Part shown: piece by piece, positions 8,267 through 63,300 of the stretch
Position numbering within the stretch: the first letter of the stretch is position 1
How the letters are laid out: every line of letters begins with the position of its first letter
Origin: Bilabrum cf. latius
Taxonomy: Eukaryota
Assembly (NCBI GenBank): GCA_965178125.1
Contig: OZ237765.1
Location: forward strand, 248,001-312,000
DNA length: 64,000 nucleotides
Direction of reading: 5' to 3'
The notes under the pieces: generated by a model
Seen by the model: only the letters and a program-made list of their open reading frames with translations
Databases searched by the model: none
Told to the model about the DNA's origin: nothing
Position numbers and translations under genes: made by a program

Positions 8267-8315
<49 letters not shown>

Positions 8316-17982: not shown

Positions 17983-18019
<37 letters not shown>

Positions 18020-19444: not shown

Positions 19445-19602
19445 TGCAAGAATTGTGGGGCCACTTGCCACAAACGGCAGAAAACCAGATTTTGCTCAAT
19501 ATACGCGCAACCTCTGAACTGCATGAACGCGGCAGCTTGGAAGGCTAATTCTGGCTGCTTGAAAAGAATCTACGAGTCTAAACGTGTATTTAAAAGCACT
19601 AC

Positions 19603-22277: not shown

Positions 22278-22333
22278 TACTATATTGTGATATCACCAAA
22301 GGCAATGCTTGCCTCTTGTACCCTAGGTCAGGA

Positions 22334-24517
22334 ATGCGTGCGACACGACACGGCAGCGACCAAGTGCAACCGCACGGCATGGTGGCGGAGGAACCAGATA
22401 GCTCACCCTCTAAAGCAGGGTGTACATCGATTTGCGACGCATATCAAGGTTTTGTGTGCATGGAATCTCGCTCTGTCGATGCCTCTGCATTCATAGTGTC
22501 TGCACATGACTTTGATTGGGATGGTGCAACTGCAGTGAGATTCTGCAAGAGCGTCCGCCTTAACCTGCATAAGGGCTGGCGCCGTGGGCCAAAGGCTGGT
22601 ATAGCTCGATTTACAACTGTATTTGCACACGTGGAAAACCTCACGATTTACTATCGGTGCTGCGAAGGCAGGGGCAAGCTGTTGGGAAGACTTGTGCTGG
22701 GACTGCCTAGGCTTAAGTCGCTTGCAGTCAATCAGCTCAAGATGAAAACCAAAGATTGGCGACACTTCGCATTTGCTGCAGGTAGGCACGCATCATTGCA
22801 GTCCTTTCATCTTGACGCAAGCTTCAACTACGGCACTACGCTCGACCCGAGAGCGCTGCGATCACTGTGCAACAGCCGTTCTCTGCGCGTCCTGCGCATG
22901 AAGGGCATACAGCTGGAAACTGGATGTGGAAAGCTACTGGGAGAAGCGTTGCAGCGACCAGATTGCCTGCTCGAAGAGCTCAGTCTTTATTCCAGCGCGG
23001 ACTGCTACCCGGTTTTCGATCTCGGCCTAAGATCCAACGCCTCGCTGTTAGCACTGACAGTGTAGCCCGGTTACATGAGGGGGGATATTCCCTACTAGTT
23101 ACCCCTATAGTGTGCGTCGGTAAACGAGACCCTTCTCTTCGTTAGCATGACGAGCTTGGCGCGACGCCGCCCCGCGCAAGCGCTCGCGCGAGATTCGATG
23201 GTGCTGCCCCTGCCGCTGATCGCCTGTCACGTCCCGTTCGCGGGTTGGAACGAAGACCAGGAACTAGCTGACGAATTTGCACGCAAACTAGGCATGCTTA
23301 AAGCTATCCGCTCCGAAGACTCGTGGCGCTCATCGTTCGGCTATTTCGACGCCCGCGAAGTACCGCCTGTGGTCGTGCCAGCTGCTGCATGGCTGGTCTC
23401 CCCGGAGCCACCCACTCTTGTGCGAGCGATTTCGTTGGCGCATCTGGTCGTAGAAAAACGACCGATTCCTCTATCTAGGGTAACGGAATACGCGCTCCGG
23501 GCGGTCCTGCACGACCGGGGCCAGGGAACACATCCCGTGCAGCTGGCGCGGCTCGCACGGGTCCTGTGCAGGCTGTCTGGGGCTAGGGCGGCGTGGGGCC
23601 AGGACGATGTGACGAGTATCATGGTGACCCTGCCAAAGACTAAACGCATGTGGCTGCCCGATCACTTGAAAGAGACCAGTGGCAGTACGGTTGCAAGCGG
23701 CCATGGCGGCAGCAAGGTATCCAGTGGTCCATGCATGGCGGTCCCTGCCGCTGCCTCTGTCACGGCCACTGCCACTGCCACTGCCACTGCCACTGCCACT
23801 GCCGCGAGCATGGGCATGGCGGACGCCGGGGGAGCACGCGAAGGAATTCTGCCTGATAAATTTGCGTGCACTGAATGGGAGGGGCCAGTGGAGCCGCATC
23901 AGGCGAGAAGGGCCATCTTGCAGAGCGGGCTGCTGTTTGCATTGCGGCGGCGTGTGATCGAAGAGATTGGTCATATCGAGGAGCGGACTCGCAAGCTCCG
24001 TAAAGAGGGCACGATGAAAGCACAGGAAATAGAGGGCGCGGCATCGCCTGCAAAAGCAATGGCTGCCCCCGTGGATGGTGGGGATACGGGTTTGTCTGTG
24101 TCAGGAGACGACCCCATGGCGGGGTCAGGAGCTTTAGTGCACCCAAAGGCAGCGGCTAGGCAGCACCAGGAATCTGTCGATCTCGCCTGCGACCGGCTGC
24201 AGCGCGCGATTTGGGATGCTAGGGCAGGGGTGAGCAGCCTGGTGGGGACACTTGCCGATGAGCGCGGCATTCCAATGGTGCGGTGGAGGAGGGCAGTGGA
24301 GGCCAAGAGGGACGCTAGACGGGTGTTCCAGGCTGCGAGCGAGGGCAGGCCTCTGGAGCTCGGGAAGCGGCTGAGGCTGGGCAAGTTGGCAGGGGGGCTT
24401 GTGCACGCACGCGCGATTGAGACAGATGCGGGCTAGCGGATGGCGACCCCGCTGGAGGCAGCCAGGCTGGGAGGGCATGACGAGTGCGTTAAGGTGCTCG
24501 AGGAGGCCATGGGGTGA
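22334..24517 (+). CDS. RNI-like leucine-rich-repeat protein with a C-terminal ankyrin-like motif, ~727 aa
   Basis: LRR-like segments LPRLKSLAV, LQSFHLD, SLRVLRM and LLEELSL. ORFs join through TAG 23063, 23096, 23108 and 24434, and end ..TPLEAARLGGHDECVKVLEEAMG-TGA (ankyrin-like). The start could be ATG 22379 instead. Confidence 0.6.
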
Positions 24518-24769
24518 GTCGAGTGCCATGACCCATGGGTCAGTAGTCACATGTCACGAGTAGCCAAGGTCGGGGCGGGTGCAACCAAGCATGATATCGC
24601 GTGGAACTGCACGGCTGATGGATTTCATGAGGTGATGGCGCAGCTCTCAGCTGGCTGTGGCGTGGCAGTGTGCGGAGTTCGGAAGGAGAGAGGCTGGGCG
24701 CTGCAGTTCACGCATACATAAGCTTGGTCGAAGCATGCAATGCAGTGCACACGAAGGCGCTCTCCTTGC

Positions 24770-26254
24770 TTAGTGTGCCCCCTGGGTCCTCTTGCTCTGA
24801 TCCACCGTGCAATGCACCTTGCTGCCCTGCCCACCCGCAGGCATGCCTAGCAACACAGTCACGTCGTGCAGCCCCTGCCCCATGCTGTTGGCCTGTTCCC
24901 TGGTGCTGGGCAGAGGGGCCACGCTGTAGGGAACAGGGGTGCTCGACACTAGCGTGCAATGCACCTCCCGGATGGGCACATCAGGGAACAACAAATCCTT
25001 GGAGAAATCGATCGTCACGTTGGTAGCGCCCTCTCGCACGGCCGCCGACTCAGTTGCCCTGGTGCCTTTGGCCACGAAGACAGTGTCGATGCTGTTGGAC
25101 TCAATCGTCACACCAGAAACGTCGGTAAAGGTGCCGTCCAGGACGATGGTGTCGTTCTTGTAGCTGCGGTTGCCCTCGGCCCACCACCGGTTGTTGGCAA
25201 CCACCAGGCCCTCCACCGTGCTGCTGCGGTTAGCGCGGAGCACCAGATTGCCCCTGGCGAGGAACAGATTACCGGTTGCAACCATCGATTTGCAGTCCGT
25301 GATGACGAGTGGGGTGAAGTCCAGGTACGAATCTTTCACGGAGCCCAACCCGTTTTCGATCTCTATCCCGCGGCCGCCCTCCGTGGTCATCAGGTTCCAG
25401 GTGTGCACGCCCTCTATCTTGTTCGCGCCGTTTTGGCTCTTGATACCCACCAGGCCGCTCCAGATGATCACGTCTTGCACGTAACAGTCGTGCTGATCGC
25501 CTTCCAGCGAGATGCACGTGGCGGTCAGGTTGCTGCTCGGAGCACTTGCTCCGGTGCTCGCCTACCGCGCGTGCGCGCTGGGAAGGTACGGCGGCTCCTG
25601 GCCCAGCCAGGAATGGTGGATGTATCCGGCCCCGGTGCCAGTCATGCGGATGCCATACTCTGTGAAGCCGTACACCATGAGAGCCGGGCCCATGTTCACG
25701 TTCTGGCCGTTCCACATCGCCACTGCTGTGCTTGCCAGGCCCTGACCGTTGATCGTTAGGCGCTCCAAGTTGATGTTTTTGGCAGAATCGCCCCTGTCGT
25801 CCGTTTCCTCTCCGATTTGCAACAGGGTTGCGCCCACTGGAAACGAGCCGAGCAGCGCTGAGATCGTGCCGCCTCGTATGTTGTAGTTTGTGTACCCACT
25901 CGGAAATTTCACGGTGCCACCGACGGCCCAGTTGCCACCAGAGAGGTCTAGCGTAGCAGAATTGAGGTTGCAGAAGCTGTCCTTAGCTGGCGCGCACCCC
26001 GCTGCACCAGTCATCGCGCTGATCGCCTTGCTCACGGCGCCAAGGCTATCAGTTTCACCGGTCGGATCCCCACCAAACTACACAGGAGAAAAAATTGCTG
26101 CTTCAGTCGCTTGTGCAGAGTGTGGCGGCACGTAGGCCTGGCCGAGGACCGAACGAATGGCGGCGTGTCGGTGGCCTGGGAAGGACTCGAGGTGTGGGAT
26201 CGAGGAGCTCGCTGCCAAAGTAAGACCAGCCAAAACGGTTAATGCATGTATCAT
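24770..26254 (-). CDS. Secreted pectin-lyase-fold beta-helix protein (QRT3 polygalacturonase-like), ~494 aa
   Basis: Signal peptide MIHALTVLAGLTLAA, then FGGDPTGETDS, LDLSGGNW, SWLGQ, ISLEGDQHDCYVQDVIIWSG..GANKIEGVHTWN and a C-terminal TVDQS. TAG at 26078 and 25562. Stop is TAA at 24770. Confidence 0.75.
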
Positions 26255-26393
26255 GTCGTCTTCGAACTATTGAGTTTGCTGGTTGTGGTGGGCCACCACA
26301 TGCTGCAGTTGCAGTTGCAGAATTTTTTGGTTCCGCTGCAACTTTGAAGATCCTGTCACGGCGCATCATCCGGCACATACCGTATCAATCAGC

Positions 26394-27413
26394 ATGGCTG
26401 GAGCCGCAAGCTCTGGATTTTCAAAACTGTCTGCTGAATAGGTCAAGTTCTGGGATGAGAACGGCTATCTTATCGTAGATAGTGTGTTTGATGCGTCCGA
26501 AGTATCGGAGCTACGATAGGCATACGATGAAGTATTGCGAGTTTGCGGCCGTGACGATATACCAGATCGGTATGCAGGCGAGAATCTAGAGCTTTGGATC
26601 GATGTCAGGCCGCCTGAAGGCACACCTGCAGGCCTGGAAAGAGCGAAACACGTCCGTAAGGTGGAGTGGCCCAACCTGCTACACGCCGGATTTGAGAAAT
26701 ACAGGACGTCAGATAAGCTACGAAAGCTGGCATGGCCATTGATGCATGGCGGATCGCTTCGTACGGCTTCCACCACACCAGAGGACTGCGTTGCATCGAC
26801 TGCGCCCATTGATTACGAAAAAGCTGCCGCCTCCCTAGATACCTCCAGCGGCACACCCGCCGGAGACATCAAGAGCTACAAGTGCTAGATAAACTTTAAG
26901 ATGCCCGGTGGAGCCGTGGATTTCCCTTGGCACCAGGATATCCGCCCGGTTCCGGCGTTTGTGGATTAGGGCAGAAACTATGTCCAGACAATCATCGCAG
27001 TCGACGACCACACGAAAGAGAACGGCTGCCTGTGGCTGTGCCCAGGCACGCACACGCTAGGCGACCTGAAGGTGAAGCGGTACGAGAAAGGAGCCATCGA
27101 GAAGAGCGTGGACATCAGCAAGGCCGTGCCCTGCGAGGCCACGGCAGGGAGCGTGATCATGTTCAAGTCGTTCTTGGTGCACGGCTCCAAGCCCAACACG
27201 ACGGACAAGCCGCGCAGAGCATTTATCAATGGGTTGGTGCACGGCATGTCCACTACCATGGGCAGGTGGACCTGGCGAGGCGGCCATCCGGTGCCCATCA
27301 CTTCGGACCACGATTACTCGGCTCTCAGGGCCCAAATGGGACTAACGACGGACCCGCACGCGCTACAGTGGACAGAAACGGGATGGAAAGGAAAGTCCAG
27401 TGATGAAAAGTGA
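26394..27413 (+). CDS. Phytanoyl-CoA dioxygenase (PhyH) family Fe(II)/2OG dioxygenase, 339 aa
   Basis: LSAE*VKFWDENGY, FKMPGGAVDFPWHQD, IAVDDHTKENGCLWLCPGTH, AGSVIMF..LVHGSKPNTTDKPRRA. TAG at 26439, 26517, 26886 and 26967. Stop TGA. Confidence 0.92.
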
Positions 27414-27774
27414 TGGTTTTGGCTGCAGGACGAGTACGTGGCAGGTGAGGCTGCTGGCCGCCTGTCGATGCTGCCGTGCAGCAGGCAAGTGCTTCGCTCC
27501 GATCGTCTCGGGTCGGCTTTTCTCAGCCCACCCAGGACATAGCATGGTGGCGCGGCTGCTCACTTCTAATTGTTTATTTGCGTTGCACGGCCTTAGCTGC
27601 TCCAGACCCTGCTCCTGATCTTGCGTGCTCCAGACTAGACAATCAAGCGGCGTGCAATCCTGATTAGATTAGCAATGACAGACAGAGTGTAAACAGCGTA
27701 CAAGGCAGGCAAAGCTAAATTTACTAGCTAAGCTCCAGCAGCGAGCATCCGGATAGCTTCGGGCCAACAACGCC

Positions 27775-30684
27775 TCACATGACGCTTCGCCGGAACCTGT
27801 AGGTGAAGAGCTTCCCGATGGAGTCCACCGCGGCGTTAATCGTGTCAACCCAGTGGCTGGCCTCCCCCACGATGCTCACACCCTCCTGCTGCAAGACCGG
27901 TCGCAAGTAGTAGGTCCGTCGCCTGGGATGCGCCACCTCGAACGCCTCTGGGTACTTGGCGCGCATCCCGTCCGCCTGGGAGGGCCCCGCCAGTGTCCCC
28001 GTGAGGTCGATGCTCGCCTTCGCCTCGGAGGGAGCAGCGTCCGTGTCGTAGTAGTACAGCCACACGGCGGTAATCACCTCGTCCAGGAGGATACCTTTGC
28101 CCACCTCGGTCGGCTGCCAGCCCACGGTGTCGGGCCCAACCACCCGCACCTCCGTGTGGACCACAACCCGGAAGAACCGCTGGCTCCAAGACCGGAACAT
28201 GCCCTTGGAGGCCTTCTTCCACAGCCAGCCCTTGAGCACGCATCGCCTGAGAGTCTGCCCCTCCGCGAGCTCTAGCACCTGCCTCCCCTGGCGAACCCTC
28301 GCGCGGAACTTTCGTCGGTGCTCCAGGGGCGGGAGGGCGGCCAGGGCACGCCTCGCACTCTCCTTGATGTTCTCCACGTACTCGTCCTCGGACATGTCTC
28401 CGCGGCCGCCAGAGGCACTGCCTCCATCGCCCACCCCCTCTCCGTCCTCCTCGATGCTCCCACTTGCTCGCGGGCCCCCGCCTAGGCTGCCACGCGACTC
28501 GCCAGACCCGCGGCTGCGGCCGTAGCTCCCCCCACGGCCACCGCTTCCAGCCTCTCGACCATACCCCGCCATCGATCCTGCTGCCGCGCCACTGCCCACG
28601 CCCATACCACCGGCCATTCGGTGGTCAAACTCGTCCCCTCTGTCAACACCCATGCGGCCACTGCCGCCAGCCCCGCCGTAGCTCTAGCTGCTCTCCTCGT
28701 CATACCCAGCCCCTGATCCGATCCCGGCTCCTGATCCGATCCCACGGCCCCCCATCCTGATCCTCCTCTCGCCCAGCTCAGCGTCGCGCTCGTCCTCCTC
28801 CTCGCCATCGCCGTACGCAGGCTCCATCTCGCGACCCATGTTCCGGTGCCCGCGTCCCATCCCCGCCCCACTCGTCACGCGCCCCGCAGAGCCTCGCCCC
28901 ATCCTACTCGTCACACCGGCAGAACCCTCCGTCCCGTCCCTGCTGCCACTGCCCCGGCTCGCAATGCTGCTTAGCTCACCGTCCCAGGCCCCTCCCCCCC
29001 GGGTTACGCCCCCCCCGAGGGCCTCCCTCTCCTCGGGTGTCCACGCCTCACTCGTCACATCGGCACCCGCCCTTGTTCCCCGGTGCGACGCTGCGAGGCT
29101 GGGGTCGGCGGGGATGCGCGCGCTCACGCCGGCGAAGGCCTGCTGCCCCTGCCCATACTCCATGCTGCCACCGGGGGACGAGTCGGAGCGGGCCGCGACT
29201 GCGGCTTCGTCGCCTCTGGAGCGACGCAGCCCGTCAGATTCTCGATCCCAGCGCTTCTGGTCCGACTACTCCTGCTGCTGCTGCTGCTGGATCCGGCCCA
29301 GGCCCAGCCCCCTCCCCGGCATGACCTGGGCGTCGTCATCGTGTCCCCCCTGGCCGGGACCCACCCTGCTGGCCAGAGGGGCCGCACCGGACGACGGCGA
29401 TATTCGGTGTGACGAGTGACCCCCCTGTTGGGAGGCCATTTCCTGCGCGCTCCTCAGGGGCCCCTCGGCGTCCAGGGCCAGGTCCGTCCCCATTGCGGGG
29501 ACACCCCCGTCGTTCGAGGCGGCGAAGCTCCCGGCCTCCCCGGACCCGTTCCTGCTGCCGGTCCTGCCCCCCGTTTGGCTGCTCTCGTCGCTCTCGAAGC
29601 TCTTGCCCAGCGCACCGTACTGGTTCCCTCCCTTCCCGGCACCTGGAGAGTGCTCGATCCCCACCCCTCCGGAGGCGTCCGAGCTGCTGAAGGCTGGGCC
29701 CTGCTGGCCGAGCGCCTGGGCCGCAGTGCCGGTCACCAAGGCCTGGTCCCTGGGAGAAGAGTTTCTGCGGACGAGTGCGCGGTGGGAAGCTCCCGCGTCC
29801 GGGGAATTCGCCCCGCCCCCCACCTCACCGTGTGCTCCTTCCAAAGGACCGTCCTCGTCTAGAGAGCTGCCTCCCGCCGCGTGACTGGTTTGCCTGCCCG
29901 ATGATGATTGCAATGCATCCGTTACGATTGGATTCGTGGATCCTGCTCGGCTGCTGCCGCCACTCGCAGCTTCCCTGTTGGTGCTCCCGGCACGAGAATC
30001 ACTGTCACCGCCGCCGCCGCGGCCTCTGCCAGGGCGAGCCAGGCCGTTGCCGGCGTCGCTCTTTTCTTCATTCCCTGTTGCAGATGCTGCTGCTTTCGAT
30101 TCACCAGCTGCTGGCAGTCGCGCTGAGCTGCTCTGTTCTGATGCGCCTGCACCGAACTAACCCGATGCTTGGGAGCTCGACCCTAGGCGCAGTAGGCTCC
30201 TCCCGACGCTTGCTCCGCTAGATGGTGGAGTAGTTTCGCTGCCTGGCTCACCTGTCCCGTGCTCGCTCGGTGACCTAGATGTCGATGGAGTTGGATTCAG
30301 CGACGACGCCGCAGATTTCTTGCCTGTCTTTCCTTTCAGGCTCAGAAGGCTCCTACCGCTAGACCCAGCCTTCAATGTTAGCTTACTGCGCGCAGCTGAG
30401 CCAGTAAGAGATGCAGTGCTCTCCGTATCCGTGCGCTACGAGGATGGAATTCTAAGCCTGCTTGAGCTAGCGCCGTGTTGTGCAACTTGAAGTGTGGACG
30501 GCTAGGCTCCTTGTCCTCGGGACCCCAATTTGAGCAAGCTTCTCCCAGCTGATGGCCCACCGCCGGCTTTGGCTAGAAGCATTCTCCCACCCGACGGACG
30601 CGGCCCCTGCGGTCCCTGCGGTCGACTGGGAACGCTGCCGCCCGCTTTATCCCCTGCCCTTGTTCCAGGACTAGTTGCCGACAT
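27775..30684 (-). CDS. Low-complexity protein with a C-terminal pleckstrin-homology (PH) domain, ~969 aa
   Basis: PH signature VLKGWLWKKASKGMFRSWSQRFF...LYYYD...IDL...FEV..PRRTYYL...WVDTINAA. Frame runs through TAG 30502, 30436, 30157, 29266 and 28684. Stop TGA at 27775. Confidence 0.85.
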
Positions 30685-30921
30685 ACTGCGTTCAAACACG
30701 TGCTTTCAGCACTCCAAAGCTTTGTTTGAACTAATCTAAAACGCGAAGTATGCAGCTTGCAACTGGCTAGGGCGGCGTGTCGATGCCGCGTTCATGTCCG
30801 TCGCAAATCGACATCCACACATCCACACGTTGCAACCGCCGCCGGCGGCGGCTGATGACCAAGATTCGTTCGTTCGTTCGCTGGCCAATCACAGTCTTAC
30901 TTCCATCAGGCTAGCCGACCT

Positions 30922-32534
30922 ATGTCAAGCTCAACCGAGGTAGGGGTTGCATTTGCTTTGGTCATTGGTTCAGGGCTGGCAACGGGATTGGGAGCCGCTC
31001 TAGTGTTCTGGAATAGCTGCATCGCGCTGGCAAATCGCAAGGTTCTAGCAGGATGTCTAGCAGTCTCAGCAGGCGTGATGCTTTACGTTTCGTTTATTGA
31101 GATTTTTATCAAATCGCTTGATGGTTTCAGCGAGTCTGGCCTGTCTGAGTCCGCAGCGTACGCGGTTACTACTACTAGTTTTTTTTCGGGCATGCTGATC
31201 ATTGTGCTGCTTGACGTCCTGGTTCGATTCATTGACCCTACTGCCGCCGAAATAACGCATGCTGACGAAGTAGATCTTCCCTCGGGCCAGCGTCTCTAGC
31301 ATGATCTGTCCCTGCCGGACCACGAGCCCGAATACAGCGAGTTCCAATCCGGTAAAGTCAGCCCCCCAGGCCGCCTGTCAAAGAACGCGTCTGCCCCAAG
31401 CTACGGCTCAAAAGAGTCATCAGAGGCCGAAAGCAGACATCTCGAAAGCGTTGCCTCTCCGCAAGCAGTTGAACTGGGCTCAAGACCCAGAATGGACGAA
31501 TCGGCAGGAGCGAGCAACGCCTCCGGGGCCTGCAAGGCGAGCACAGGGAATGCAGCAGCTGCTTCGGTTGGTCAGGGCGCAGACGAATCCCCGACGGAAA
31601 TGGCTGCTGATTTGGAGAGCGGTCTTGGTCGCGGGTCCTAGCCCGAGGAGTCGGAAGAGCAGCACGCCGAGCGAGCCGCTAGCCAACCAGAGGACGCAGC
31701 CAAAGCGGCGGGGGCCTCCGGTTGTAGCGATGCGGCCACTACTAGCAGCGGGACGGCGGTCCAAGTCGGTCGCAAGCGCACCTAGCCGGCCCAACAGCTG
31801 TAGTAGCGGGTCTCAGACGACTCGGAATCACAAAATGCCGCCCCCCCAGCCGATCCGAGGCTGATGCGCATGGGGCTGATGACGGCCATCGCGCTGGGTC
31901 TTCACAATCTTCCGGAGGGGCTGGCTACACTGGTGGGTGAGTAGAATGCGAAATGCAACGGGGTTACATTTCGCTGACCCCCCCTCGCTTCCACTGGGCT
32001 AGGGAGGGCAGCACCTGCACCCCTTAATGCTCGCATGCCGAGTCCCTGACTATCATCATACCTGCCCCATTCTCGATCCCATGTGTCGCATTCGGATCAT
32101 CGCATGTTTTCGCGCCCTGTCATATCACTCATCACACCTACGCAGGAGCACTGGATGACCCCAGGGTGGGGGCGGGGTTGGCAGTGGCGATTGGACTCCA
32201 CAACATCCCCGAGGGAATCAGCGTGGCACTTCCGGTTTACTACGCTACGGGGTCGAGGTGGAGGGCCTTCGGGTACGCGTTGTTGTCCGGGGTGGCCGAG
32301 CCAATTGGGGCACTCATCGGGTGGCTGGCCCTCCGGTCCACCGCAGACGGGGACATTTCGCCGATGGCTTACGGAGTCGTGTTCGGGCTGGTGGGCGGGA
32401 TGATGACGTACCTGTGTTTCCACGAGTTGATTCCAACGGCGCTGCGGTACGATCCCAAGAATGAAGTCACGACCAGGTGCATCGTAGGGGGCATGGCTGT
32501 GATGGCGCTTTCGCTGGTGCTGTTCTAGCTGTAA
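30922..32534 (+). CDS. zupT: ZIP (ZupT/GufA-type) zinc transporter, ~467 aa
   Basis: SAGVMLYVSFIEI, ALGLHNLPEGLA, AIGLHNIPEGISVALP, SGVAEPIGA, GMMTYLCFHELIP. Intron 31937..32145. TAG at 31297, 31639, 31783, 31801, 31804 and 32526. Stop TAA at 32532. Confidence 0.92.
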
Positions 32535-32974
32535 GGGGTGAAAGGTGAGGGGTGGGGGCGGGATGGGATGGGAGGGAGAGAAATTTGATCGCTCTTAGCA
32601 GGCTGTGTATTTGATCGCAATGGCCCCTGGTGCAGATCTGCCGGTGGTGCGCCCACGAGCTGCTCAAGGTGATTTAAAGCCACAGCGCCACGTGTGGCTC
32701 CATAGTATACTTTTATATGGAACATGCATTATATGACTTGGCCCGGACCTCTCACTGGCGGGGGCTTGGTGTAGGTGGCATGATTGCCTCCGCTCGCGTA
32801 AAGTGCACTGCACGGTTGTGTTTTCCATGGATGGGCGCGAGGCGCGGCGGTAGAACTACCACAAGCATCCCATCGCTTCCTAGATCGCTTCAAGGGCTTG
32901 AAGCTTGCGGCAGAGGCGGGTCTGCATCGGATTGGGACTACGTTAGCAGTCGTTTGCGGCTGTCTTCGTCTAAT

Positions 32975-35900
32975 ATGAATTTCTGGCGCCATCTGGGCCT
33001 TGCGCTGTGGAAGACATGGTTGTGAGATTCAGAAATAATCGCTAGAGACAGTATTTCACAACCACTAAACGCATGATAGCATGTATATATATTCTTTATG
33101 GCCAACTGATTGCAGAACCAAGGTGCGGAACACATGTTCCTGCCTGTGCGAGTTTTTCCTTCCGGTGATCTTCGTTGGGCTCATGGTCGCGCTTTACGGC
33201 AGTTCCCATCCACAAGACGTCCCAGACACGACGTATGAATGCAGCAGTACTGCAATGACTGGCTGTGAGACGCTGTGGAGGCCTGCGAGCTCTTTGCTGG
33301 TCTAGTTGTGATTTCATGCGCGATCGTGGTTTGCCTGCGCTCTTTCGTTATCCGCAGCCCGGTTCGACTTTGCGCTGCTGCCATACGCTTTGAATATAAC
33401 GAATCAACGGCTTGCTATCGTTGGCGATGATACTGCGAGGTCCAATTTCCTGGACCATCTGGCGGACTGGTACCCTGGCCTGGATCCCGTCACCGCCGAC
33501 AAGCTGAAGTGCGAGGCCCTTGAGGTGACGCCCCTGGCCGTGCCCCCGTACGCCACTCGCGGCGGAGAAGGGGAAGAAGCCCGCGCTGCGGGTAAGCACG
33601 AAAACCTCTTCGGCGAGCCCGTGGTGGACGACGGCGCTACCGTCGCGACCGCCAACCCCGGCGTCGTGCTGGAATTCGACTCCGAATCCTCCATGGAGTC
33701 GTACGCGACTTCCTCGTCCTACGGCCGCGGCGACCACCCGTCCATTTACGCCGCCGTCGTGCTGTCCTCGGAGGGCCCCGACTGGTCCTACACCATCCGA
33801 GGCAACTCGAGCTTCCTGCCCCCCCTGCAGCCCAGCGTCAACCCCTACCAGCGGGACGTGACCCAGGGAACAATCGACAAGTACCTCTTCGCCGACTGGT
33901 TCAGCCCAGCCAGCGCCATGCCGGGAGCCAGCCACGATCTCCTCACCGCGCCCGCCTCGTTCTCCAGCATCCAGCTTGCTGTTGACAGGTACATCCTCGG
34001 GACGGCGGCACCGAGTAACGACTCCGGGTCCTCCGCGGCCTCTCTCGGCCTCGTGGCTGCGACGCTGCTGGAATTCAACTGCTCGGGAGCCCTGGATGAT
34101 CCGATCCTGGTGGGCAAGGTGGCGGATTTGCTCCGGTCTACGACCCTGTCCCCGCAGCGGGTGCAGGTGACCCCGTTTCCCATCACCGCTTTCAAGGGCA
34201 ACCAGTTCTTCAGCGCGGTGTCTCAGGTGTTCGGGCTCTTCCTGGTGCTGGGGTACTTTTATCCCGTGTCTCAGGTGATCGGATCGATCGTCAGCGAGAA
34301 GGAGACCAAAATTAGGGAGGGCATGCAGATGATGGGCATGGCGCCTGGGGCACTCGGGGGCGCGTGGCTCATCTACTTCTTCACGCAGTTCGGCGTGATT
34401 GCCATCATCAGCGCGACTCTGTTGAACTCGACTATGCTCAAGCATTCGAGCGGGGGGCTGCTGCTCCTGCAGTTCTGGCTGTTTGGGCTCAGCTGCACGG
34501 CCCTAGGCTACCTGCTGTCCACGTTCTTCAGTCGGTCCAAAATCGCTGCAGTCGTGGGCACCATCGTCTACGTGGCCGCGTTCTTCCCCTACTTTGCCGT
34601 GGACAACCCCGAGAAGGGCCACGGGGGCAAGATCGCTGCCTCTATCCTCTCACCCGTGGCCTTTGGCATCGGGCTGCAGGTCGTCTCGGACGTGGAGGCC
34701 AACGGGGTGGGTCTGACGATGGCCAACGTTAACATCCCCGTGGACAACGTGACCTTCGCGGAGACGCTGCTCATGCTGGCCGTGGACACGGTGCTCTACC
34801 TCGCCCTGGGATGGTACTTTGACAACGTAATCCCCCAGGAATTCGGAGTGGCCAAGCCCTGGTACTTCCCCGTGTCTCCGGACTACTGGTGCGGGGAGGG
34901 CGGGATGTGCCCCTTGAGGACGCAGCCCCCCGCGGACTACGACAATGACGGCCGCCAGCGGGTCTCCAGCGGGACCAGCAGTGTGACGAGTGCGGGAATG
35001 GAGGACGAGTCGGATCGCGGCGTGGAGCTCCGCGGGAAGAAGCCCCTCCTGGCTGCATCCGATGGCGCGGGCGAAGGCCTCTCGCCTGTGGGCACTGCCA
35101 AGGAGGGCAGGCGGGGCGCGGTGATCGAGGGGGTCGGAAGCCACCTCAAGCAGCTGGCCAACTAGGGCAGGAACATCAAGGTCAGGGGCCTGCGGAAGGA
35201 GTTCGACACGCCGGATGGAATCAAGGTGGCGGTGGACGACCTGGACATCGACATGTACGAGGGCCAGGTGTTCGCCCTCCTGGGACTCAACGGGGCGGGC
35301 AAGAGCACCACCATCAGCATGCTCACGGGCCTGATCGGCCCCAGCAAGGGCTACGCCAGCATCAAGGGGATGGACATCACCACCGGCATGGACAAGATCA
35401 GGCAGTCCATGGGGGTGTGTCCCCAGCACGACGTGCTCTGGGGAGAACTCACCGTCAAGGAGCACCTTCAGTTCTTCGCGGCCCTCAAGGGCGTCCCCGC
35501 TGACGAGGTGGACAAAGAGGTCGCGCAGAAGATCCGGGAGGTGGGTCTCACGGAGAAGGTCGAGGCGCCCTCGGCCTCCCTCTCCGGTGGCATGAAGCGC
35601 AAGCTGAGCGTGGCGATCGCGCTGATCGGAGGAAGCAAAGTCGTGTTCCTAGACGAGTGCACGAGCGGGATGGACCCGTGGTCCAGGCGAAGCACATGGG
35701 AGGTCATTTAGAACAACAAGGACGGCAGGATCATCGTCATGACGACACACTTCATGGACGAGGCCGACATTTTGGGAGACAGGATCGGGATCATGGCCGA
35801 CGGGAGGGTGCGTTGCTGCGGCAGCAGCATGTTCCTCAAGCAGCACTTCGGAGTCGGCTACAACCTGACCATGGTCAAGGAGCAGGACTGCACGGAGCAG

Positions 35901-38900
35901 AACGAGCTGGCCATCCAGGAAGCTGTCGAGAGGGCCGTGCCCGAGCAGGAACTCCTCTCCAACGTGGGTCTGGAGATCTCCTTTTAGATCCCCATGGGCG
36001 CCTCCAAGCACTTTCCCGGACTGTTCCGGGAACTAGAGCGGAGGAAGGACGAGCTCCGGATCGACAACTACGGGATCGGAGTCACCACCCTAGAGGAGGT
36101 GTTCCTCAAGGTCGCGGAGGAGTCCGAGGAGGAGGCCGCGCGCCTGCAGGAGCAGAAGCTGCATCAGGAGAGCAGAAACCTCGCGGCCGCCTCCCTCAAC
36201 GCCGGCGGGGCCGGGGCTCTGGGAGCCTTGGAGGGCGGGTTCGGGTCCGGGGGTGCTGCCGGCATCATGAGCAGCAAGAGGGACGACGACGAGATCTCGA
36301 TCAACGGCGGCGCGGTGCACTCTGACGGGTACGCCCCGCCCTCAAACGTGTCGGATGCGCTTCTTTCGGGCGGTGGCGGCAGTGAGAGCGGCAAGGTCGG
36401 GTCTTCGTCCTCCCGGGCGCACGGCGGGAGGAAGAAGCACCGGGTCATCGACACGTACGAGCGAGCCAAGCAGCAGCCCGAGGGATGCGACATATTCGTC
36501 ACACACTTCGTGGTGCTCCTCTGGAAGCGGTTCCGCTACGCCGCGCGCGACACGAGGGCACTCCTGTGCCAGCTGCTCATCCCTGTGGTGGTGCTGTCCC
36601 TGGGCCTCGCCCTGCTCAAGGCAGCCACTGCCCCGCCCCAGCAGCCCGTCATAATGAGCACCAGCCAGTTCAACGCGGCGCTCGGAGCCCCCGAGGGGGC
36701 AGAGTCTCCCAACCTGCTGCCATTCGGGTACGGCGGGGGCAACCGCACCGCCAAGCAGGACCCGCACCTCGCGTCCAACGCCAAGTCCTGGGCCGCCATG
36801 ATCCCCAGCAGCGATTCCCAGGTGTACGACGCAACCTCCAGCGTACCGCAGTACGCAAACGCCGCCAACTACACTGAGCCCGCGGGCTGCAACATATCCT
36901 TCAACCCCCTCGTGGGCGTCCCAAGCACCTACTTCTTCGGGTTCGACCCCGAGTACTCGAACGCCCGCACCTGGGCCATGTCCGAGTGGCTGCTGCACAC
37001 CAAGAAGCAGCCGGAGGGCGGGGCCTCGCGGTTCGGGGCCGTGTGGCTGGAGCGGCTGGACAAGCAGGGGCAATTCGGCAGCGAGACCACAGAGGCGGAA
37101 GAGGGCGCGGCTGATATGTACGGGCGCCTGTACGAAGAGTCTGCCGTCGACGGGTCGTTCACGGGGCTGCCCAGCTCGTGGGTGGAAGCGGCTGACGTGG
37201 GCGAGCTGGAGTGGGCCATGGGGGAGGAAGCGGCCCGCTATGCACGCGCTGCCGGTGTGCTCCTGCGACCCGACGGAAGCGTCGCGTCCTTGCGCGACTT
37301 GCTTCGCAGCCACGCCAGCCAGCAGCGACCGGTCGTCGGGGGTGTCCCCAAGGCGGCTCGGGAGGGCGTGGCTCACCTGACTTTGTTCGCCAACACCACG
37401 GCCCCCGCCAGCGTGCCCACTTTCCTGAGCCTCGCCAACGACGCGCTGCTGCGGTTCTTCTCGGGGGCGGCACCGGGCTCCAGCTCGCCCTCGATCACGC
37501 TGTCCAGCAAGCCGCTGCCGCTCACCAAGGCTGAGAACTCGAGGAACACGAGCATCGGCAGCTTCGTGGCCGTACTGTTCTTCACGATCGCCTTCTCTTT
37601 CATCCCTGCCCAGTACGCCGTGTTTGTGGTCAAGGAGCGCGAGATCAACGCAAAGCACCAGCAGCTCATCTCGGGGGTCAGCATCCCAGCCTACTGGCTG
37701 TCTACCTTCGCGTTCGACGCGATGACGTACATCATCCCGGGAGGGCTGTCCATCGTCCTGGTGGTGGCGTTTGGGATCCACGACCTGACAGACGGGGCCT
37801 CCATGGGAGCAACCATCGTGCTCATCATGATGTACGGTGTCTCCGTGGCCGCATTCACATACTGCGTATCGTACGCCTTTGGGTCCCACAGCACGGCCCA
37901 GATCGCCGTCCTGGTGCTCAACCTGTGCTGCATGCTGCTGCTGATCGCCTCGTTCGTCATGCAGCAGATCGAGAGCACCTGCAAGGCAGACAGGGCCCTG
38001 AGGTACGTGTACAGGATCCTCCCGGGATACTCAATGGGCAACGGGCTCATGCAGCTGTCCCTGCTCAAGAGCCTCAACTTCTTCGACACCAACTGCGGGG
38101 AGCTGACTCCGGAGCAGATGCTCAACCGCCATTTCACGGCGTGGTCGATGGAGGTGGCGGGCTGGCCCGTGCTGTACATGTGCATCGAGACGGTCGTGTA
38201 CTTTTTGGTCGCGATCGGCATCGACATCCTCCTGTCGTACCCCTCGCTCAAGGCAGCCGTGCTCCCCGACAAGGACATCCCCATGGACGACGACGATGCG
38301 GACGAGGACGTGCGGGAGGAGGCCTCGAGGGTGGAGCGAGGAGGGGCCAAGGAGGACCTGCTCGTGCTGAAGGGCCTCAGGAAGATCTACGGAGGAGCCA
38401 AGGCCGCGGTCCGCAGGCTCCAGTTCGGGGTGCCCCGGGGGCAGGTGTTCGGTCTCCTCGGGATCAACGGGGCCGGCAAGACGACCGCGTTCAAGATGCT
38501 GTCCGGTGACATCGTGCCTACCTCGGGCACGGCCACCATCTCGGGCCACGACGTGCTCAGGGAACAGATCGAGTGCAGGCGGCTCATCGGCTACTGCCCC
38601 CAGTTCGACGCCATCCTGGACCTGCTGAGCGTGAGGGAGCACCTCGAGATGTACGCGCGGATCAAGGGGGTGCCAAGCGATCAGCTGGAGCAGGTGGTGC
38701 AGGCCAAGATGCAGCAGATGGACCTGCCAAAGTTCGAGCACAAGCTCGCAGGCTCCCTGTCCGGAGGCAACAAGCGCAAGCTGAGCGTGGGCATCGCGCT
38801 GATCGGCAACCCGAGCCTCGTCATGTTGGACGAGCCCTCGACGGGCGTGGACCCAGTGGCCCGCCGCAAGATGTGGGACATTATCACCTAGGTGGCTACG

Positions 38901-40367
38901 GAGCGGAAGACCTGCAGCGTGGTGCTGACCACCCATTCGATGGAGGAATGCCAGGCGCTCGCGTAGAGGGTCGGCATCCAGGTGGGGGGACGGCTCAGGT
39001 GCCTCGGCAGCATCCAGCACCTCAAGCACAGGTTTGGGAGGGGCTACACGGCCGAGATCAAGCTGGATCCCGCCGAGGCAGACCACATCGCGCGGGTGAA
39101 GACGTTCATGTCCGGCTACATCTCGATCGTGGAGGGCGCGAGCGTGGTGCAAGCCGCCGCCGTGCAGCCCCTGTGCGAGCATCTGGGGGACGACTCTCGG
39201 TACAGGATGATCCACCCATCGGGGAGCGGCTGGGCCATCGCAAGCGAGCTGCAGAACCAGGGCAAGTGCGACGCTCACGTGTTTGCGGAGTGGTGGGCCT
39301 TTGAGTCGCTGGGGGCGGCGCTGCACCAGTTCATCACGGACAACTTCCAGGGCGCCTCGCTGGTGGAGAGGCACGGGGAACACTTCCGGTACTCGCTGCC
39401 GGAGTAGTCCGACATGCCCCTGTCCGAGATTTTCGCTCGGGTGGAGGGGGGCAAGCAGCGGCTCCGGATCTCGACGTACAGCCTGAGCCAGACCACGCTC
39501 GAGCAGATCTTCAACCTCTTCGCCTCCCAGCAGGAGGAGGAGAAGGGGTCCGCCCGTGGGATGCAGTCCGCCGTCGCCAGACGAGGCTCGCTGGACGACA
39601 GCGACGAAGAGACTGGTCGGGGCCCGGGGAAGAAGGGCGGTGCGGGAGGGGGCGCAGCGGGGTCTGGCGCCGCGGTGGTCCTCGGAGCGAGTCGGAGCAG
39701 TGGTGGTGCCGTGGCCCGCGCGGCGGACCAGGCGGTTGCAACCACTCTCAGGGAACAGCAGGCAGCCAGTGCGCGCGGGACAGACGGCCGCGGGGGCTCG
39801 GTCGCGGACACCGGCAGTGTGACGAGTGAAGGGCAGGAGGCGTGGTGGCACGCGGCGCGCAAGGAGCTCCCGGTGAACGAGGACGCGCTGAGGAGCGGCA
39901 GCATCACCACGGACGACGGCGAATCGATCGCGAGCGGGTCTGCCAGCGAGGGCGAGGGGCATGGCGACCAGGGAACAAGAGGTGTGGCCATCGGGCAGAG
40001 CGCGAGGAGGGGCGGAGGGGGAGCCCCCAACGGTGGCATGGGGGGCAGGCAGCAGTCGCTTGTGGCTGCAGCCAGGGACGAGATGGGCGGATCGCAGGCC
40101 GCGAGGGCCGTGGGGCTGATCCCTCCGCGCTCGTCACATCAAGGGGGCTCCAGTGGTGCGCATCAGACGGCTGGCGCGCAGGGGGCGAGCGCGATGGTGA
40201 TGCCTGCGGCGTCCAGGGGCGGATCCATGTCGTCCGGCACGGGGACAGATGGGGAATTCGAAGCTGGTCGCGTGGTCGGTGGCTCGATGGATTCCGGGAC
40301 GGAGTCGGGCAGGGACGCGGCGGCTTCCTTTGTGGATCAGGGGAATTGGTGGGAGCAGGGCAGGTGA
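32975..40367 (+). CDS. ABCA: Full-length ABCA-subfamily lipid transporter (2 TMD + 2 NBD), ~2401 aa
   Basis: Walker [10 protein letters not shown] and GINGAGKTT, signatures LSGGMKRKL and [21 protein letters not shown] and [20 protein letters not shown] and TTHSMEEC, and TTLEEVF. Introns 33022..33115 and 33265..33357. TAG at 35163, 35709, 35985, 38889, 38964 and 39405. Stop TGA. Confidence 0.95.
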
Positions 40368-40788
40368 GCAGGCAAGCGCGCTCGCTCGGCCGAGCAGTGT
40401 TGGCAGGGAGGCAGGCAATCCCCGGAGACTGTTCGGCGAGATTCGATCCGGCGCACCATGGCGCTTGTGATGCGTACCCATTGGTGAGCATGTAGCTATC
40501 TCTACCCATCGTGGGCTGGGATGTAGGCACATGCTGCATCGATTCGGGTGCCCATGCAGGTGTGGCTGTTGTGACCGCCCGTTCGAGAGGCTGTGCGCTT
40601 GTCGGCCGCTTGCTCCGTTGAAAGTTAAGTTTCTAGCAAGATCTGCTAGATTGCTTTTGCAGATTATAGGTACCACAATACCAAATTCGAGTGTTTGTAG
40701 CTCAGTGCTAAGCTCACTATCAAGTGCGACGAACCTTCCGAAGCAGCTACTTAGCGCAGCGATACTAGGAAGCGATTAGGCACTACCA

Positions 40789-42259: not shown

Positions 42260-42433
42260 GGATAGTGGCGCGTCACGATGGCCATGGCCGTACAGGACTC
42301 GGGATAGTCTCGCATGTGTGTTAATTGGTTGTACAGAATCCTGCGCCGGACGTGTTTAATCTTCATCTTGAATTTAGGTTGCAACCGATTTTTTCCACGT
42401 CATGGAGGCCATTGAATTGCGTACTAAGACGCA

Positions 42434-45958: not shown

Positions 45959-46828
45959 TCACAGCATGTCATCGAAGGGCAGGGGCGCGATGGCGGCGGG
46001 CGCCTTGCCGGTGCTAGAGGTGACGCCAACAAAGTAGCCGGCGCGGGGCTGGCCGGGCAGACGCTTCAGGTCCTCCATGGGCAGGCGGGTGCCCGACTTC
46101 TTGGCGTCACGCTTCTTGGTGTCCACGTCCTGGACACGCCTCAGGAAATCCTCGCGGCACCTCGACTTGCGCGCGTGCTCGATCCTGATGTGGATGCGCT
46201 TCTTGATGATGCGGTTGCGCACCTGCTTGTTGACCTCCACGCCGATGGAGCGGCGGGTCACATCAAACACCACGCCGGTCCGGCCGTGGTAGAAACGATG
46301 GGGCATACCCTTGTGCACAGCGGCATTAGCCTTGATGTCCACGTAGTCGCCAACCTTCAACACCTCCAGCATGTGAGAGAGGGGGAAGTTGTTACCGGTC
46401 TTTCGGAACGACTGCGAGTACATGTCGCGCGTACGCGCGCGGTACCCGAAGCTGCAGTAAGAAGTAATATCAGATAGGCGATATCAATTGGTGCAAAACC
46501 AAAATAAGACCCATGCATAGCAAAAAAGACCCCAGTCAATATGATCGTTGGTACCAAACGCCGGGCCACATCCCTCAACCACCTTAGATGGGCACCGTGG
46601 TCTGTACTACTGGTGGTATCACCTCAGTGAATACCAATACGAGCATGCTTGGCTCTCAGCACTCCCACAAAGCCTCAGGAACTGCTGCAGCTGGCAGCCG
46701 ATCTCAGATGGCGGTACCCTCTGTACCTTGTACACACATACTGACGCTCATCGAGCATGAATCATAATTAAAAGCATGTACTGTTTCATACAACAGGACG
46801 ATAGGCCGTGTACTCACCTGTGCGGCAT
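45959..46828 (-). CDS. RPL21: 60S ribosomal protein eL21 (L21e), 167 aa
   Basis: Exon 1 (46818..46828, ATG CCG CAC AG), intron 46452..46817 and exon 2 give MPHSFGYRARTRDMYS...KVGDYVDIKANAAVHKGMPHRFYHGRTG. No TAG. Stop TGA. Confidence 0.96.
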
Positions 46829-49703: not shown

Positions 49704-49888
49704 GTAGCTAACCAATTGTAAACACGGATCTGATCGGAAAAGGCTCCAAAGCCCGTCGCGAGAGTGGAACGCCTCAACGCCAACAAGAGCGACTTGCGGT
49801 CGCAACCGGCGGTCGCAGGTTGGGTGTTCACCTTGCTCCTCGGCATACTGCCCTCTTACAGTTTAAAATAATGCGCATAATCGTATAA

Positions 49889-60310: not shown

Positions 60311-63300
60311 TCAGGGCACGACAAGCCCACCCTCCGCGAACAGGAACGCGTTGTCACCGCAAGGACCCGACTGCACGGTGTAGTTCCCGGGCATGACCCT
60401 GAAAACCGCGTCATCATCCACCATGGCTAAGTCGCTCGCGACGATGGGCACCTGCACCTCCTTGCTCTCACCGCCGGACAAACGCACTTTGGTGAAACCC
60501 CCGAGGCGCATCCAGAAACGGGCGGTGAGCGTGACCCCCGGGGGGTCATTCAGGAAGACCTGCACCGTCTCCGCTTGGTCCTACCCCACACCGTCCTGCT
60601 CCCGGGTCACGGTAACGGTCGCAACCGCCATGACGTCATCGTGGTGGTCCTCCCAGTCCTGGGGTGTGACCCACGACGATGCCTGGGCTAGCGCGCTGCG
60701 GTTCGGCTGGATCCGGATGGACTCGTAGGTCACGCTCGAGTAGCCCACGCCGTGCCCGAAGGGGACAAGGGGTGTGCCCGTCCCCACTCGGTTGACGTAC
60801 TCTGCGTACGCCCTGCCTCCTGGAGGGTTGATCACCTTGCTCCTGTGCCCCTCCGCAACAAAGTCGCCCACGATCCGGCTGAGCCACGGCGCCGCGCTGG
60901 AGTGCACTGCACCCACGGTAGAGGGCCAGGCGGCCGGCTCCCTCCCAGAGGGGCTGAACGCGCCCACAAGAGCCTCCGCCGCAGCCACGGCCCCGCGCTC
61001 ACCGGGCCTCCACAGGTCGAGCACAGCCCCGACGGGAGACTTGTCGCTGTCCCAGAACAGGGTGTTGTTCGAGGTTTCCGCCCCAAAGGTCAGCGGCCGG
61101 CCGTGTACCAGCACCATGGCGACCGGGGTGGTGAACGCGGCCAAAGCGTCGGCCGGCAGGTCCGCGGCCTGCTCAACGGACATATCGAGGCTGTCAGCAG
61201 CCCTCTGCACCCCTTGCTTGGTGATGTTCCCTGCGATTGCCTCCAGGAGCTGCAGCTGTCCCCCGGGAAGGTCCAGCGTGGTCACGTCCTGGTTCTCGTC
61301 GCACGTCTGTAAAGTGTCGCCCAGCACCAGCACCACGGCATCAGAGGACAGGGCGGACTGCACCGCGGCAGGGATCAGGTCCAGGCCGAGACCCTTGTGC
61401 ACGTCGATGTGGCACCCCTACTGCACCGAAAGCGCGGCGCCAGTTCCGTTCAGAGCGCCCTCCATGGCCTCGTCGAAGAGGGGCACGTGCCTGCGGTCGC
61501 TGTCGAGGGAGTACGGCCCCAGCAGCGCGGCTCGCTGGAGGCACCAGTCCGGAGTGGGGTCGCCGAGCTTGTTGCCTGGGTCATGATTTGGCTCCGAGTC
61601 GCCGTCGTCGGTGAAGCAGGAGGCCAGAGGGCCGATGAGTGCGACCGATTGCGCCCCAATTCGAGCAGCGGAGAGGGAGCTGCCTGCGATGGGCACTGGC
61701 CGCTGTGCCCCTACCTGCCCGGGTGCCTGCTGCTGGTGCTCATACTGTTCCTGTGTCTTCGTCTGATGGGCGAGGTGTAGGAGCTGCTGCTTGCGAGCGG
61801 CCCAAGGGGGCAGGTGACCAGCGTCTGCGTCCACCGGCGCATCAGGACTCAGCCGAAGAGTGCCCGCCCGAAGCGCGCTCTGGTGCTGCGCGTGACCCGC
61901 GCTGTCCAAGGCGCCCCCAGCGGCGGGGACGATGGGGAGGGTGTGACGAGTATTCCGGATCATGGTGACGGCCTGACGCGCCGCCTCCGCGTTGATGGCG
62001 TCGTGCTCGGGGCTCCCAATGTCCTTGAGCCTCGCTGGATCCGCCATGGGGTGGTCAAAGAGGCCCGTGGCGAACTTGAGGGAGAGCACACGGCAGACGG
62101 ACAGGTTGATCTGCTCCATGGTGACCAGCCCAGCGTCCAGCGCGGGCTGCAGGTAGGCGTACCCCTGGTACTCCCAGGGGGCACCACCTCCCTGTAGGTC
62201 CTGATCCACGCCAGCCCGCAGCGCGGCTGCCGCAGCGTGGGCCATGTCGGGTACAACTCGGAATGGTACGAGGTTGTCGATGTTGCGCTCGTCTGTGATG
62301 ACCATGCCCAAGCCGGAACTGCCGCCCAGCCGCAGCTGGCCGCGCAGCTGATCCGTCAGCATCTTGCGGTTTGCGTGCATTGGGATCCCGTTGGTGGTCT
62401 GGTGGCTGGCCATGACGGCCCTTCCCCCCGCCCAAGCGAACCTTCGCCAGGGCTTCAGGAACACCTCCTGCACCGTCTGGTTGGTCGTCTCGGCAGCAGC
62501 AGCATTCAGGCCCCCGGCAGCGTCACCGTACCCCGCGAAGTGCTTGCCCAGCGCGGCGATGGTGCTGTTGACGCTCGGGAGGTACCCCTATGCCCCCAGG
62601 GGAGTGTTGGGGCCCTGCAGCCCCTCCACCACTGCGGTTGCAACGTGCGCTGACAGGGTTGGGTTGGGGCTGTACCCCTCGCTGAAGCGGCCCATGCGGG
62701 CGTCCATGAAGAGGTTGATTACAGGGGCGTACCCAGTGTCTGCAAGCGAGCGAGCGAGCGAGTGTGTGAATCGGGGGAGAGAGGACTGGGGCTCAGATAT
62801 CGTGCATACGTGAAGACGTTAATGAGGAAAACATAGATGCTTACCGGCCCCGATGGCTCTTGCTTCCGTGGCAATGGCCTGCGCGATGCTCTTCCACAGC
62901 GTCCGGTTCCAGCTCGAGGCCTGGCCTGTGGGTGCGGGAAACACGACACCTCCCCAGGTGCCCGAGTGCAACGTCTCTGACTGAAATGAAACGGGGATTT
63001 TAAGCCTAGCCGACTTCAGTACGGCCTCCTGCACGCGATTGCGCTGGTACTGAATCTGCTCGATGGTGGCATTCACCTTCCACTGGCCAGTCATCCAATG
63101 CATTGACGCAGCCCCGACCGACGTGTTGCTGAACTTGTCAATAATTTCTTGGGCTGGAAGCGTGTAAACACTCCAAAGCTGTTTAATTTTCTCCTCTGTT
63201 GTCATCCCCTCCATCAAATCTGCTACGCGCTCTTGAATAGGCCTTGACGCATCCATATAAGCCGGATTGACACTTGCAGCGGCATCTGCCATCGCTACTG

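Follow-up and report, generated by a model that had tools for sequence, protein, structure and literature searches.

Evidence for a nuclear genetic code with UAG as a glutamine codon and UAA remaining a stop codon in a GC-rich eukaryotic contig

The subject of this analysis is the genetic code of the protein-coding genes in a 64-kb stretch of eukaryotic DNA with a GC content of about 62% (64,000 nucleotides of contig OZ237765.1, assembly GCA_965178125.1, deposited as Bilabrum cf. latius, positions 248,001 to 312,000; hereinafter, the window). When only TAA and TGA are taken as stops, the window contains open reading frames (ORFs) of 2980, 2351, 1559, 1243, 976, 961, 956 and 915 amino acids. 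The standard code splits these frames into abutting ORFs that lie in the same frame and are separated by single TAG codons. The Pfam matches in the window include an ABCA transporter, glycosidases of the GH3 and GH59 families, an Orn/DAP/Arg-type decarboxylase, NudC, an RCC1-repeat protein, a PhyH dioxygenase, a ZIP transporter and a DUF4485 protein. We built 19 gene models (17,637 codons) with TAA and TGA as delimiters. These models contain 72 in-frame TAG codons and no in-frame TAA or TGA; 17 models are terminated by TGA and 2, those of a QRT3-like gene and the ZIP gene, by TAA. The TAG codons are spread over 17 of the 19 models, so that gene calling with the standard code disrupts 17 of the 19 genes in the window. 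An initial annotation made from the sequence alone had proposed that UAG is a sense codon and that UAA stays a stop, with the remaining 17 genes ending in TGA and no internal TAA or TGA required in any gene. Our own tally agrees with that count, and both parts of the proposal are borne out by the evidence described below: the sense meaning of UAG by the 72 in-frame TAG codons, by RNA-like contigs that are unbroken across TAG codons and by glutamine codons opposite TAG in orthologues and paralogues, and the stop meaning of UAA by the location of both terminal TAA codons at family C-termini and the lack of TAA in frame.

The main exon of the ABCA transporter gene (33358..40367, plus strand), supported by Pfam and PDB alignments, ends with TGA and contains six in-frame TAG codons, with the first bases at 35163, 35709, 35985, 38889, 38964 and 39405. 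Contigs of sequencing runs were compared with positions 22001-42000 of the window only, and three runs (X5, X7 and X8, belonging to two studies) gave contigs that are called RNA-like solely from their spliced GT..AG joints, no run being recorded as RNA. These contigs are spliced at GT..AG introns and are otherwise identical to the DNA, with no other letters. Their joints delimit two introns between the 5' exons of the ABCA gene (33022-33115, 94 nt, and 33265-33357, 93 nt), an intron of the RCC1 gene (41020-41119, 100 nt) and the intron of the ZIP gene described below; the four RNA-verified introns all begin with GTGAG, end with GCAG and are 93, 94, 100 and 209 nt long. A single RNA-like contig is colinear with the DNA over 33358-40666 and crosses all six TAG codons of the ABCA gene with no other letters.

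The RNA-like contigs run colinearly through TAG codons without base changes, which excludes introns, editing and assembly errors as the source of these codons. The notion that the in-frame TAG codons are artefactual, that is, reflect pseudogenes, assembly errors, missed introns or UAG codons edited to CAG in the RNA, is refuted by this colinearity and has, in our estimate, a negligible probability. The same letters are found in contigs of runs from four studies, the affected genes retain their Pfam domains, and they are conserved with a related metagenome contig, L001, which itself carries in-frame TAG codons of its own. In a coding-potential test that looked for coding-like sequence on both sides of a triplet, 22 of the 844 TAG triplets qualified, compared with none of the 1575 TGA and none of the 407 TAA triplets.

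The amino acid encoded by TAG was assessed from aligned codons. The metagenome contig L001 (9.8 kb, positions 1-9802, GC content of 56%) is syntenic, in reverse order, with positions 15764-30705 of the window and encodes orthologues of the PH-like, PhyH, QRT3-like and DUF4485 genes; it is without the window's GH59 gene and the gene at 22019-24517 and has a different, multi-exon gene at 2386-4257. The comparison included the four pairs of window and L001 orthologues and a pair of tandem paralogues within the window. Among the 22 aligned sites that hold a TAG, one has TAG in both sequences and 21 have another codon opposite. The 21 partners encode Gln at seven sites, Val, Ser, Ala, Arg and Glu at two sites each, and Asp, Gly, Pro and His at one site each. 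Where at least 8 of the 12 flanking columns are identical (seven sites), the partner is CAG in six cases and GCT in one.

The best comparisons between orthologues come from the PhyH-family gene (26274..27413, plus strand; Pfam match, four in-frame TAG, TGA end), whose orthologue in L001 is 77% identical. Three TAG codons of the window gene stand opposite CAG and one L001 TAG stands opposite a CAG of the window; in the same pair, one window TAG is opposite GCT and one L001 TAG is opposite GTT. The tandem paralogues (46977-49862 and 49889-52636, minus strand), each with two in-frame TAG codons and a TGA end, are 51% identical over about 600 residues; one of their TAG codons is opposite CAG, with 9 of 12 flanking columns identical, and another, 49 codons before the stop, is opposite CAC, with 7 of 12 flanking columns identical. 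Taken together, these partners show that TAG is translated as a glutamine codon. PDB alignments of the ABCA protein and the decarboxylase are compatible with glutamine, without being decisive. Two other amino acids were considered and rejected: leucine, which one ABCA1 alignment showed, has no instance among the 21 partners, and serine, which is opposite TAG at two sites, compares with seven glutamines of the 21; against both, six of the seven partners with conserved flanks are CAG.

The single column with TAG in both sequences belongs to the QRT3-like orthologues, which are 57% identical. It lies at approximately 26078-26080 on the minus strand of the window and at 6961-6963 of L001, in the contexts FSPV-TAG-FGGD and FSPA-TAG-FGGD, respectively. 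Since this TAG is common to an orthologous site, the code change would predate the split between the window and L001; judging from these aligned sequences, the shared codon suggests inheritance from their common ancestor.

The QRT3-like gene is also the first of the two genes terminated by TAA. Its coding sequence (24770..26254, minus strand; 494 codons and the stop, two in-frame TAG codons, recognized by its homologues) reads ...HCTVDQSKRTQGAH, then TAA at 24770-24772, and the encoded protein has the C-terminus ...CTVDQSKRTQGAH. The TAA directly follows an invariant C-terminal histidine: all 19 aligned homologues stop at this one common column, and in each of the 12 metagenome loci with a match that reaches the histidine, a stop codon comes directly after it (9 TGA and 3 TAA). 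A TAA with a sense meaning would not be expected at this site. The coding score falls beyond the TAA, and an RNA-like contig spans 24452-26352 over this gene without base differences.

The second such gene encodes the ZIP transporter and consists of two exons on the plus strand. Exon 1 (30922..31936), which matches positions 6-196 of the Pfam Zip profile, ends where the RNA-like contigs of three runs are spliced; the intron (31937..32145, 209 nt, GT..AG) corresponds to a joint recorded as 31935/32145 (cut +1) in X5, X7 and X8; and exon 2 (32146..32534) matches positions 198-321 of the 323 in the profile. The gene ends ...LSLVLF-TAG-CTG-TAA at 32526-32534, with the TAG at 32526-32528 and the TAA at 32532-32534. 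Of the 30 homologues aligned to exon 2, 23 end two residues past ...LVLF, 7 are longer and an end at the F does not occur; in the two closest (97% and 83% identical), the last residues are ...LVLFQL, with Q at the position of the TAG. It follows from these homologue ends and from FQL in the closest relatives that TAG stands for glutamine, CTG for leucine and TAA for the stop in this gene, and from the C-terminus ...LVLFQL that a TAG only two codons from the gene end is read through. We presume that a standard codon underlies the Q of these relatives, given that TAG is treated as a stop in the gene calls of the database; the QRT3-like gene of L001, for instance, is represented there only by a fragment that starts beyond its TAG. 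In both genes, TAA stands precisely where the protein family ends, and it is absent from the reading frames. For both gene ends, the coordinates given in the initial annotation proved right: the QRT3-like homologues also end at the family C-terminal motif before the TAA at 24770, and the ambiguity that it had left at LSLVLF-TAG-CTG-TAA is resolved by the relatives ending in ...LVLFQL.

The RNA-like ZIP contigs (three runs, two studies) terminate 0-6 nt past the TAA, at 32532, 32539 and 32540, which may reflect a very short 3' untranslated region (UTR), although contigs cannot show true ends. The ZIP stop lies within the pentamer TGTAA (32530-32534); considered as the green-algal poly(A) signal, this pentamer has 19 matches where chance would give about 36, and there is no match close to the end of the ABCA contig.

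The same contig ends are relevant to a different interpretation, under which TAG would encode glutamine inside genes and yet act as a terminator near some 3' ends, similarly to the context-dependent codes of Condylostoma or karyorelicts. A weak hint in this direction is that the ZIP contigs end at 32532-32540, at TAG-CTG-TAA, although, as noted, their ends need not be those of the transcripts. There is also a weak excess of late TAG codons: the last TAG lies within 17 codons of the stop in 3 of the 19 genes, compared with about 1.3 expected from the overall TAG frequency (72 in 17,637 codons), the distances being 2 codons in the ZIP gene, 6 in the gene at 42428-43651 and 17 in the gene for the 2980-aa protein. 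The homologues speak otherwise where they are available. The ZIP TAG is read through, given that none of the 30 homologues ends at the F and that the closest two end FQL. In the 915-aa paralogue of the tandem pair, the sequence after the TAG located 49 codons before the stop is conserved with its partner. C-termini that are fixed by homologues, namely those of the QRT3-like, ZIP and eL21 proteins and of the PH-like protein compared with L001, carry TGA or TAA and never TAG. Furthermore, 3' UTRs are not uniformly short, with the ABCA contig extending for about 300 nt beyond the TGA. We therefore consider an ambiguous TAG improbable, and UAG as a regular glutamine codon remains the preferred interpretation.

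The other key question is whether UAA has changed its meaning along with UAG. Under the code of ciliates, dasycladalean algae and hexamitins (table 6), both UAR codons (UAA and UAG) encode glutamine, and TAA would be missing from the reading frames merely because it is too rare in a GC-rich genome. TAA is indeed the rarest of the three triplets, with 410 occurrences on both strands of the window compared with 851 TAG and 1577 TGA, and A-ending codons are disfavoured, as attested by the glutamine codons of the models (116 CAA and 583 CAG). However, at the CAA:CAG ratio, 14.3 in-frame TAA codons would be expected and none is observed, the probability of zero being about 6e-7; if GAA:GAG or AAA:AAG is used instead, the expected number rises to 21-23. 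When these coding sequences are read in the +1 and +2 frames, 88 TAA triplets appear, against 0 in frame. A comparable pattern is seen in L001, in which the four main ORFs, not counting the extra multi-exon gene, comprise 1808 codons with 13 TAG, 17 CAA, 39 CAG and no TAA, compared with about 5.7 TAA expected from CAA:CAG. In addition, the terminal TAA codons stand at C-termini common to all 19 QRT3-like homologues, with stops directly after the histidine in 12 of 12 loci, and to 23 of the 30 ZIP homologues. We regard the reassignment of both UAR codons as highly improbable and UAA as a retained stop.

Several points weigh against the reading of UAG as glutamine with UAA as a stop. The complete lack of in-frame TAA is partly circular, given that the models were delimited by TAA and TGA, and for this reason, all 410 TAA triplets on both strands were scanned as a control. 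In 39 cases, the triplet is flanked on each side by 60 or more open codons, and in 4 of these 39 the coding scores are positive on both sides. Three of the four are antisense to the ABCA gene or to the gene for the 961-aa protein. The fourth (62819-62821, minus strand) separates two GH3 ORFs that share its frame and thus also favours the reassignment of both UAR codons. This TAA is located within a candidate GT..AG intron (62740..62844, minus strand; 105 nt, GTAAGC...TTGCAG), the ends and length of which are similar to those of the four RNA-verified introns; across 62740-62844, the Pfam GH3 profile breaks off at position 116 and resumes at 116. From these splice-site letters and the continuity of the Pfam match, we take the segment to be a candidate intron with a length that would be a multiple of three by chance; the comparison with run contigs covered positions 22001-42000. 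Furthermore, there are only two TAA terminators, both in one 64-kb window, and L001 contributes none, all four of its complete gene ends being TGA. The TAG codons located 17 codons before the TGA of the gene for the 2980-aa protein and 6 codons before the TGA of the 405-codon gene at 42428-43651 have no homologue that would decide their meaning. The column of the TAG shared by the QRT3-like orthologues holds D, A or S, rather than Q, in other homologues. Finally, the standard codon for Q in the ZIP relatives P0152 and P0153 is presumed from the gene calling of the database. With these points taken into account, we estimate the probability at roughly 0.88 that the window represents nuclear DNA from a GC-rich, intron-poor eukaryote, in which cytoplasmic translation reads UAG as glutamine and uses UAA and UGA as terminators, UGA being the main one.

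The codon table is the one listed as genetic code 15, a name under which the reassignment of TAG to glutamine appears in PMC9523058. Most stop-to-glutamine codes shift UAA and UAG together, with Iotanema and some phyllopharyngean ciliates shifting UAG alone (PMC11687900, PMC5304391), in agreement with the literature framing of coupled and UAG-only reassignment in the initial annotation. UAR codons encode glutamine in many ciliates, in Dasycladales and their relatives, in hexamitin diplomonads and in Amoeboaphelidium protococcarum (PMC5304391, PMC6299283, PMC11687900). The codes of NCBI table 6 have UAG as glutamine and TGA as a stop, as is the case here; the difference is that TAA is not a sense codon in the window, with 0 occurrences in 17,637 codons and two as a terminator. 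The decoupled nuclear codes include those of the rhizarian exLh (Leu), Iotanema (Gln), Scotinosphaera (Ser) and Protocruzia (Gln), as well as of the ciliate PL0344 (UAA as Lys, UAG as Glu) and of phyllopharyngean ciliates (Leu and Gln) (PMC11687900). In exLh (UAG as Leu; PMC5304391), Scotinosphaera (UAG as Ser with TAA as a stop; PMC8271138) and PL0344 (UAA as Lys, UAG as Glu; PMC10553269), the meanings of UAG and UAA are split, as they are here, and the amino acid is different; there is no Leu, Ser or Glu codon among the partners of TAG at sites with conserved flanks.

The closest parallel in terms of the code is the fornicate Iotanema spirale, in which UAG alone is reassigned to glutamine, UAA and UGA remain stops, and the same machinery has been inferred, namely a tRNA-Gln(CUA) and an altered eRF1 (PMC5304391). 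The differences are that UAA is the primary terminator in Iotanema (PMC5304391), whereas TGA ends 17 of the 19 genes here, and that Iotanema is an anaerobic metamonad known from its transcriptome, whereas the window is genomic DNA with 62% GC and GT..AG introns of about 100 nt. The PhyH-family gene of the window is oxygen-dependent and, in our interpretation, points to an aerobic life style, unlike that of the anaerobic Iotanema. Ciliate macronuclear DNA is typically AT-rich and has very short introns. The window, by contrast, is part of a contig that carries at least 19 genes on 64 kb, with 62% GC and introns of 93-209 nt, and so differs from phyllopharyngean ciliates and Protocruzia tuzeti. 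These ciliates share the codon table found here, with UAG as glutamine (PMC11687900).

The lineage thus looks unlike ciliates and resembles no listed case of UAG as glutamine, being characterized by a GC-rich contig with many genes and introns of about 100 nt. The gene for ribosomal protein eL21 has an exon at 45959..46483 on the minus strand, with no TAG and a TGA end. In comparisons with PDB chains, the best scores of its product, 154-158 bits, are against eL21 chains of 164 residues, which we take to be plant entries, compared with 102 bits against 4v8p, presumably the Tetrahymena chain. Outside its own clade, the closest eL21 has 60% identity, a sequence labelled MMETSP0472 is 59% identical, and that of Cafeteria is 55% identical; these values do not place the lineage. 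Protein-atlas matches of the NudC protein likewise yielded no taxonomic information of use. An aphelid (Amoeboaphelidium) origin was considered, and evidence neither for nor against it was found. Our survey of the literature, with most subscription journals outside its coverage, yielded no description of this type of code for any lineage that is GC-rich or stramenopile-like.

What we describe is a new case of a rare, already known type of code, the UAG-only reassignment to glutamine. A broader claim, namely that this is a lineage with a previously unreported code of this type, that the change predates its split from L001, the divergent relative that also uses TAG as a sense codon, and that it would be the first instance in a GC-rich, TGA-terminating, multi-gene nuclear genome, is put forward tentatively, at somewhat less than even odds. 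UAG and UAA nearly always shift jointly, and a split of the UAR codons has so far been reported from few protist lineages; each independent split tests whether the coupling is mechanistic or historical.

With respect to the mechanism, UAG would be decoded by a tRNA-Gln with the anticodon CUA, which differs by one base from CUG, the anticodon used for the dominant CAG. Because its first base is C, the anticodon CUA cannot pair with the third-position A of UAA, which leaves that codon available for termination. The counterpart on the side of termination would be an eRF1 in which the recognition of UAG has been lost or weakened and that of UAA and UGA has been kept. UGA is retained as a terminator, as indicated by the 17 of 19 genes that end with TGA and by the lack of in-frame TGA. 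A mutation of the tRNA from CUG to CUA might have been the easiest route, yielding a UAG-only change; this route would be favoured by the fivefold excess of CAG over CAA and by the predominance of TGA among the stops. The requirement for a CUA-anticodon tRNA and, most likely, an eRF1 with weakened UAG recognition has been described for UAG-only reassignment (PMC5304391). The GC-rich setting, with TGA as the main stop and CAG as the main glutamine codon, amounts to a different route to the same code compared with the UAA-primary Iotanema. Iotanema and exLh were originally represented by transcriptomes only, with genomes awaited for the identification of the tRNA(CUA) (PMC5304391). Here, genomic DNA is available, and the changes in tRNA(CUA) and eRF1 behind the decoupling could be read directly. 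No tRNA genes were found in the window or in eight related loci, and an Rfam scan of the window gave no matches; the window also contains no gene for eRF1.

Some additional features of the window and its relatives are worth recording. The public gene calls for relatives are fragmentary: the first residue of the protein P0003 (375 aa) lies downstream of a TAG that is in frame in L001, and P0152 starts with M at a position where the window has L. Such fragmentary database proteins fit bacterial-type gene calling with standard stops. The tandem paralogues are multi-pass membrane proteins with Lys/Glu-rich tails, and no Pfam family was matched by either. A perfect inverted repeat of 31 nt (58325-58355 and 60100-60130) surrounds a 1.74-kb AT-richer segment without a long ORF, with a GC content of 0.38-0.48 compared with about 0.62 around it; this segment looks like a non-autonomous DNA transposon or a similar insert. 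At 24317-24452, a DNA-like X6 contig skips 136 nt and the contigs of two runs begin at 24452, so that this contig break is not usable as a transcript end; the skip probably reflects a polymorphism, either an indel or a repeat, within the 3' portion of the gene at 22019-24517. Finally, the GH59-like gene (19603-21198, minus strand) contains, within its frame, a run of about 45 Gly-Ala dipeptides.

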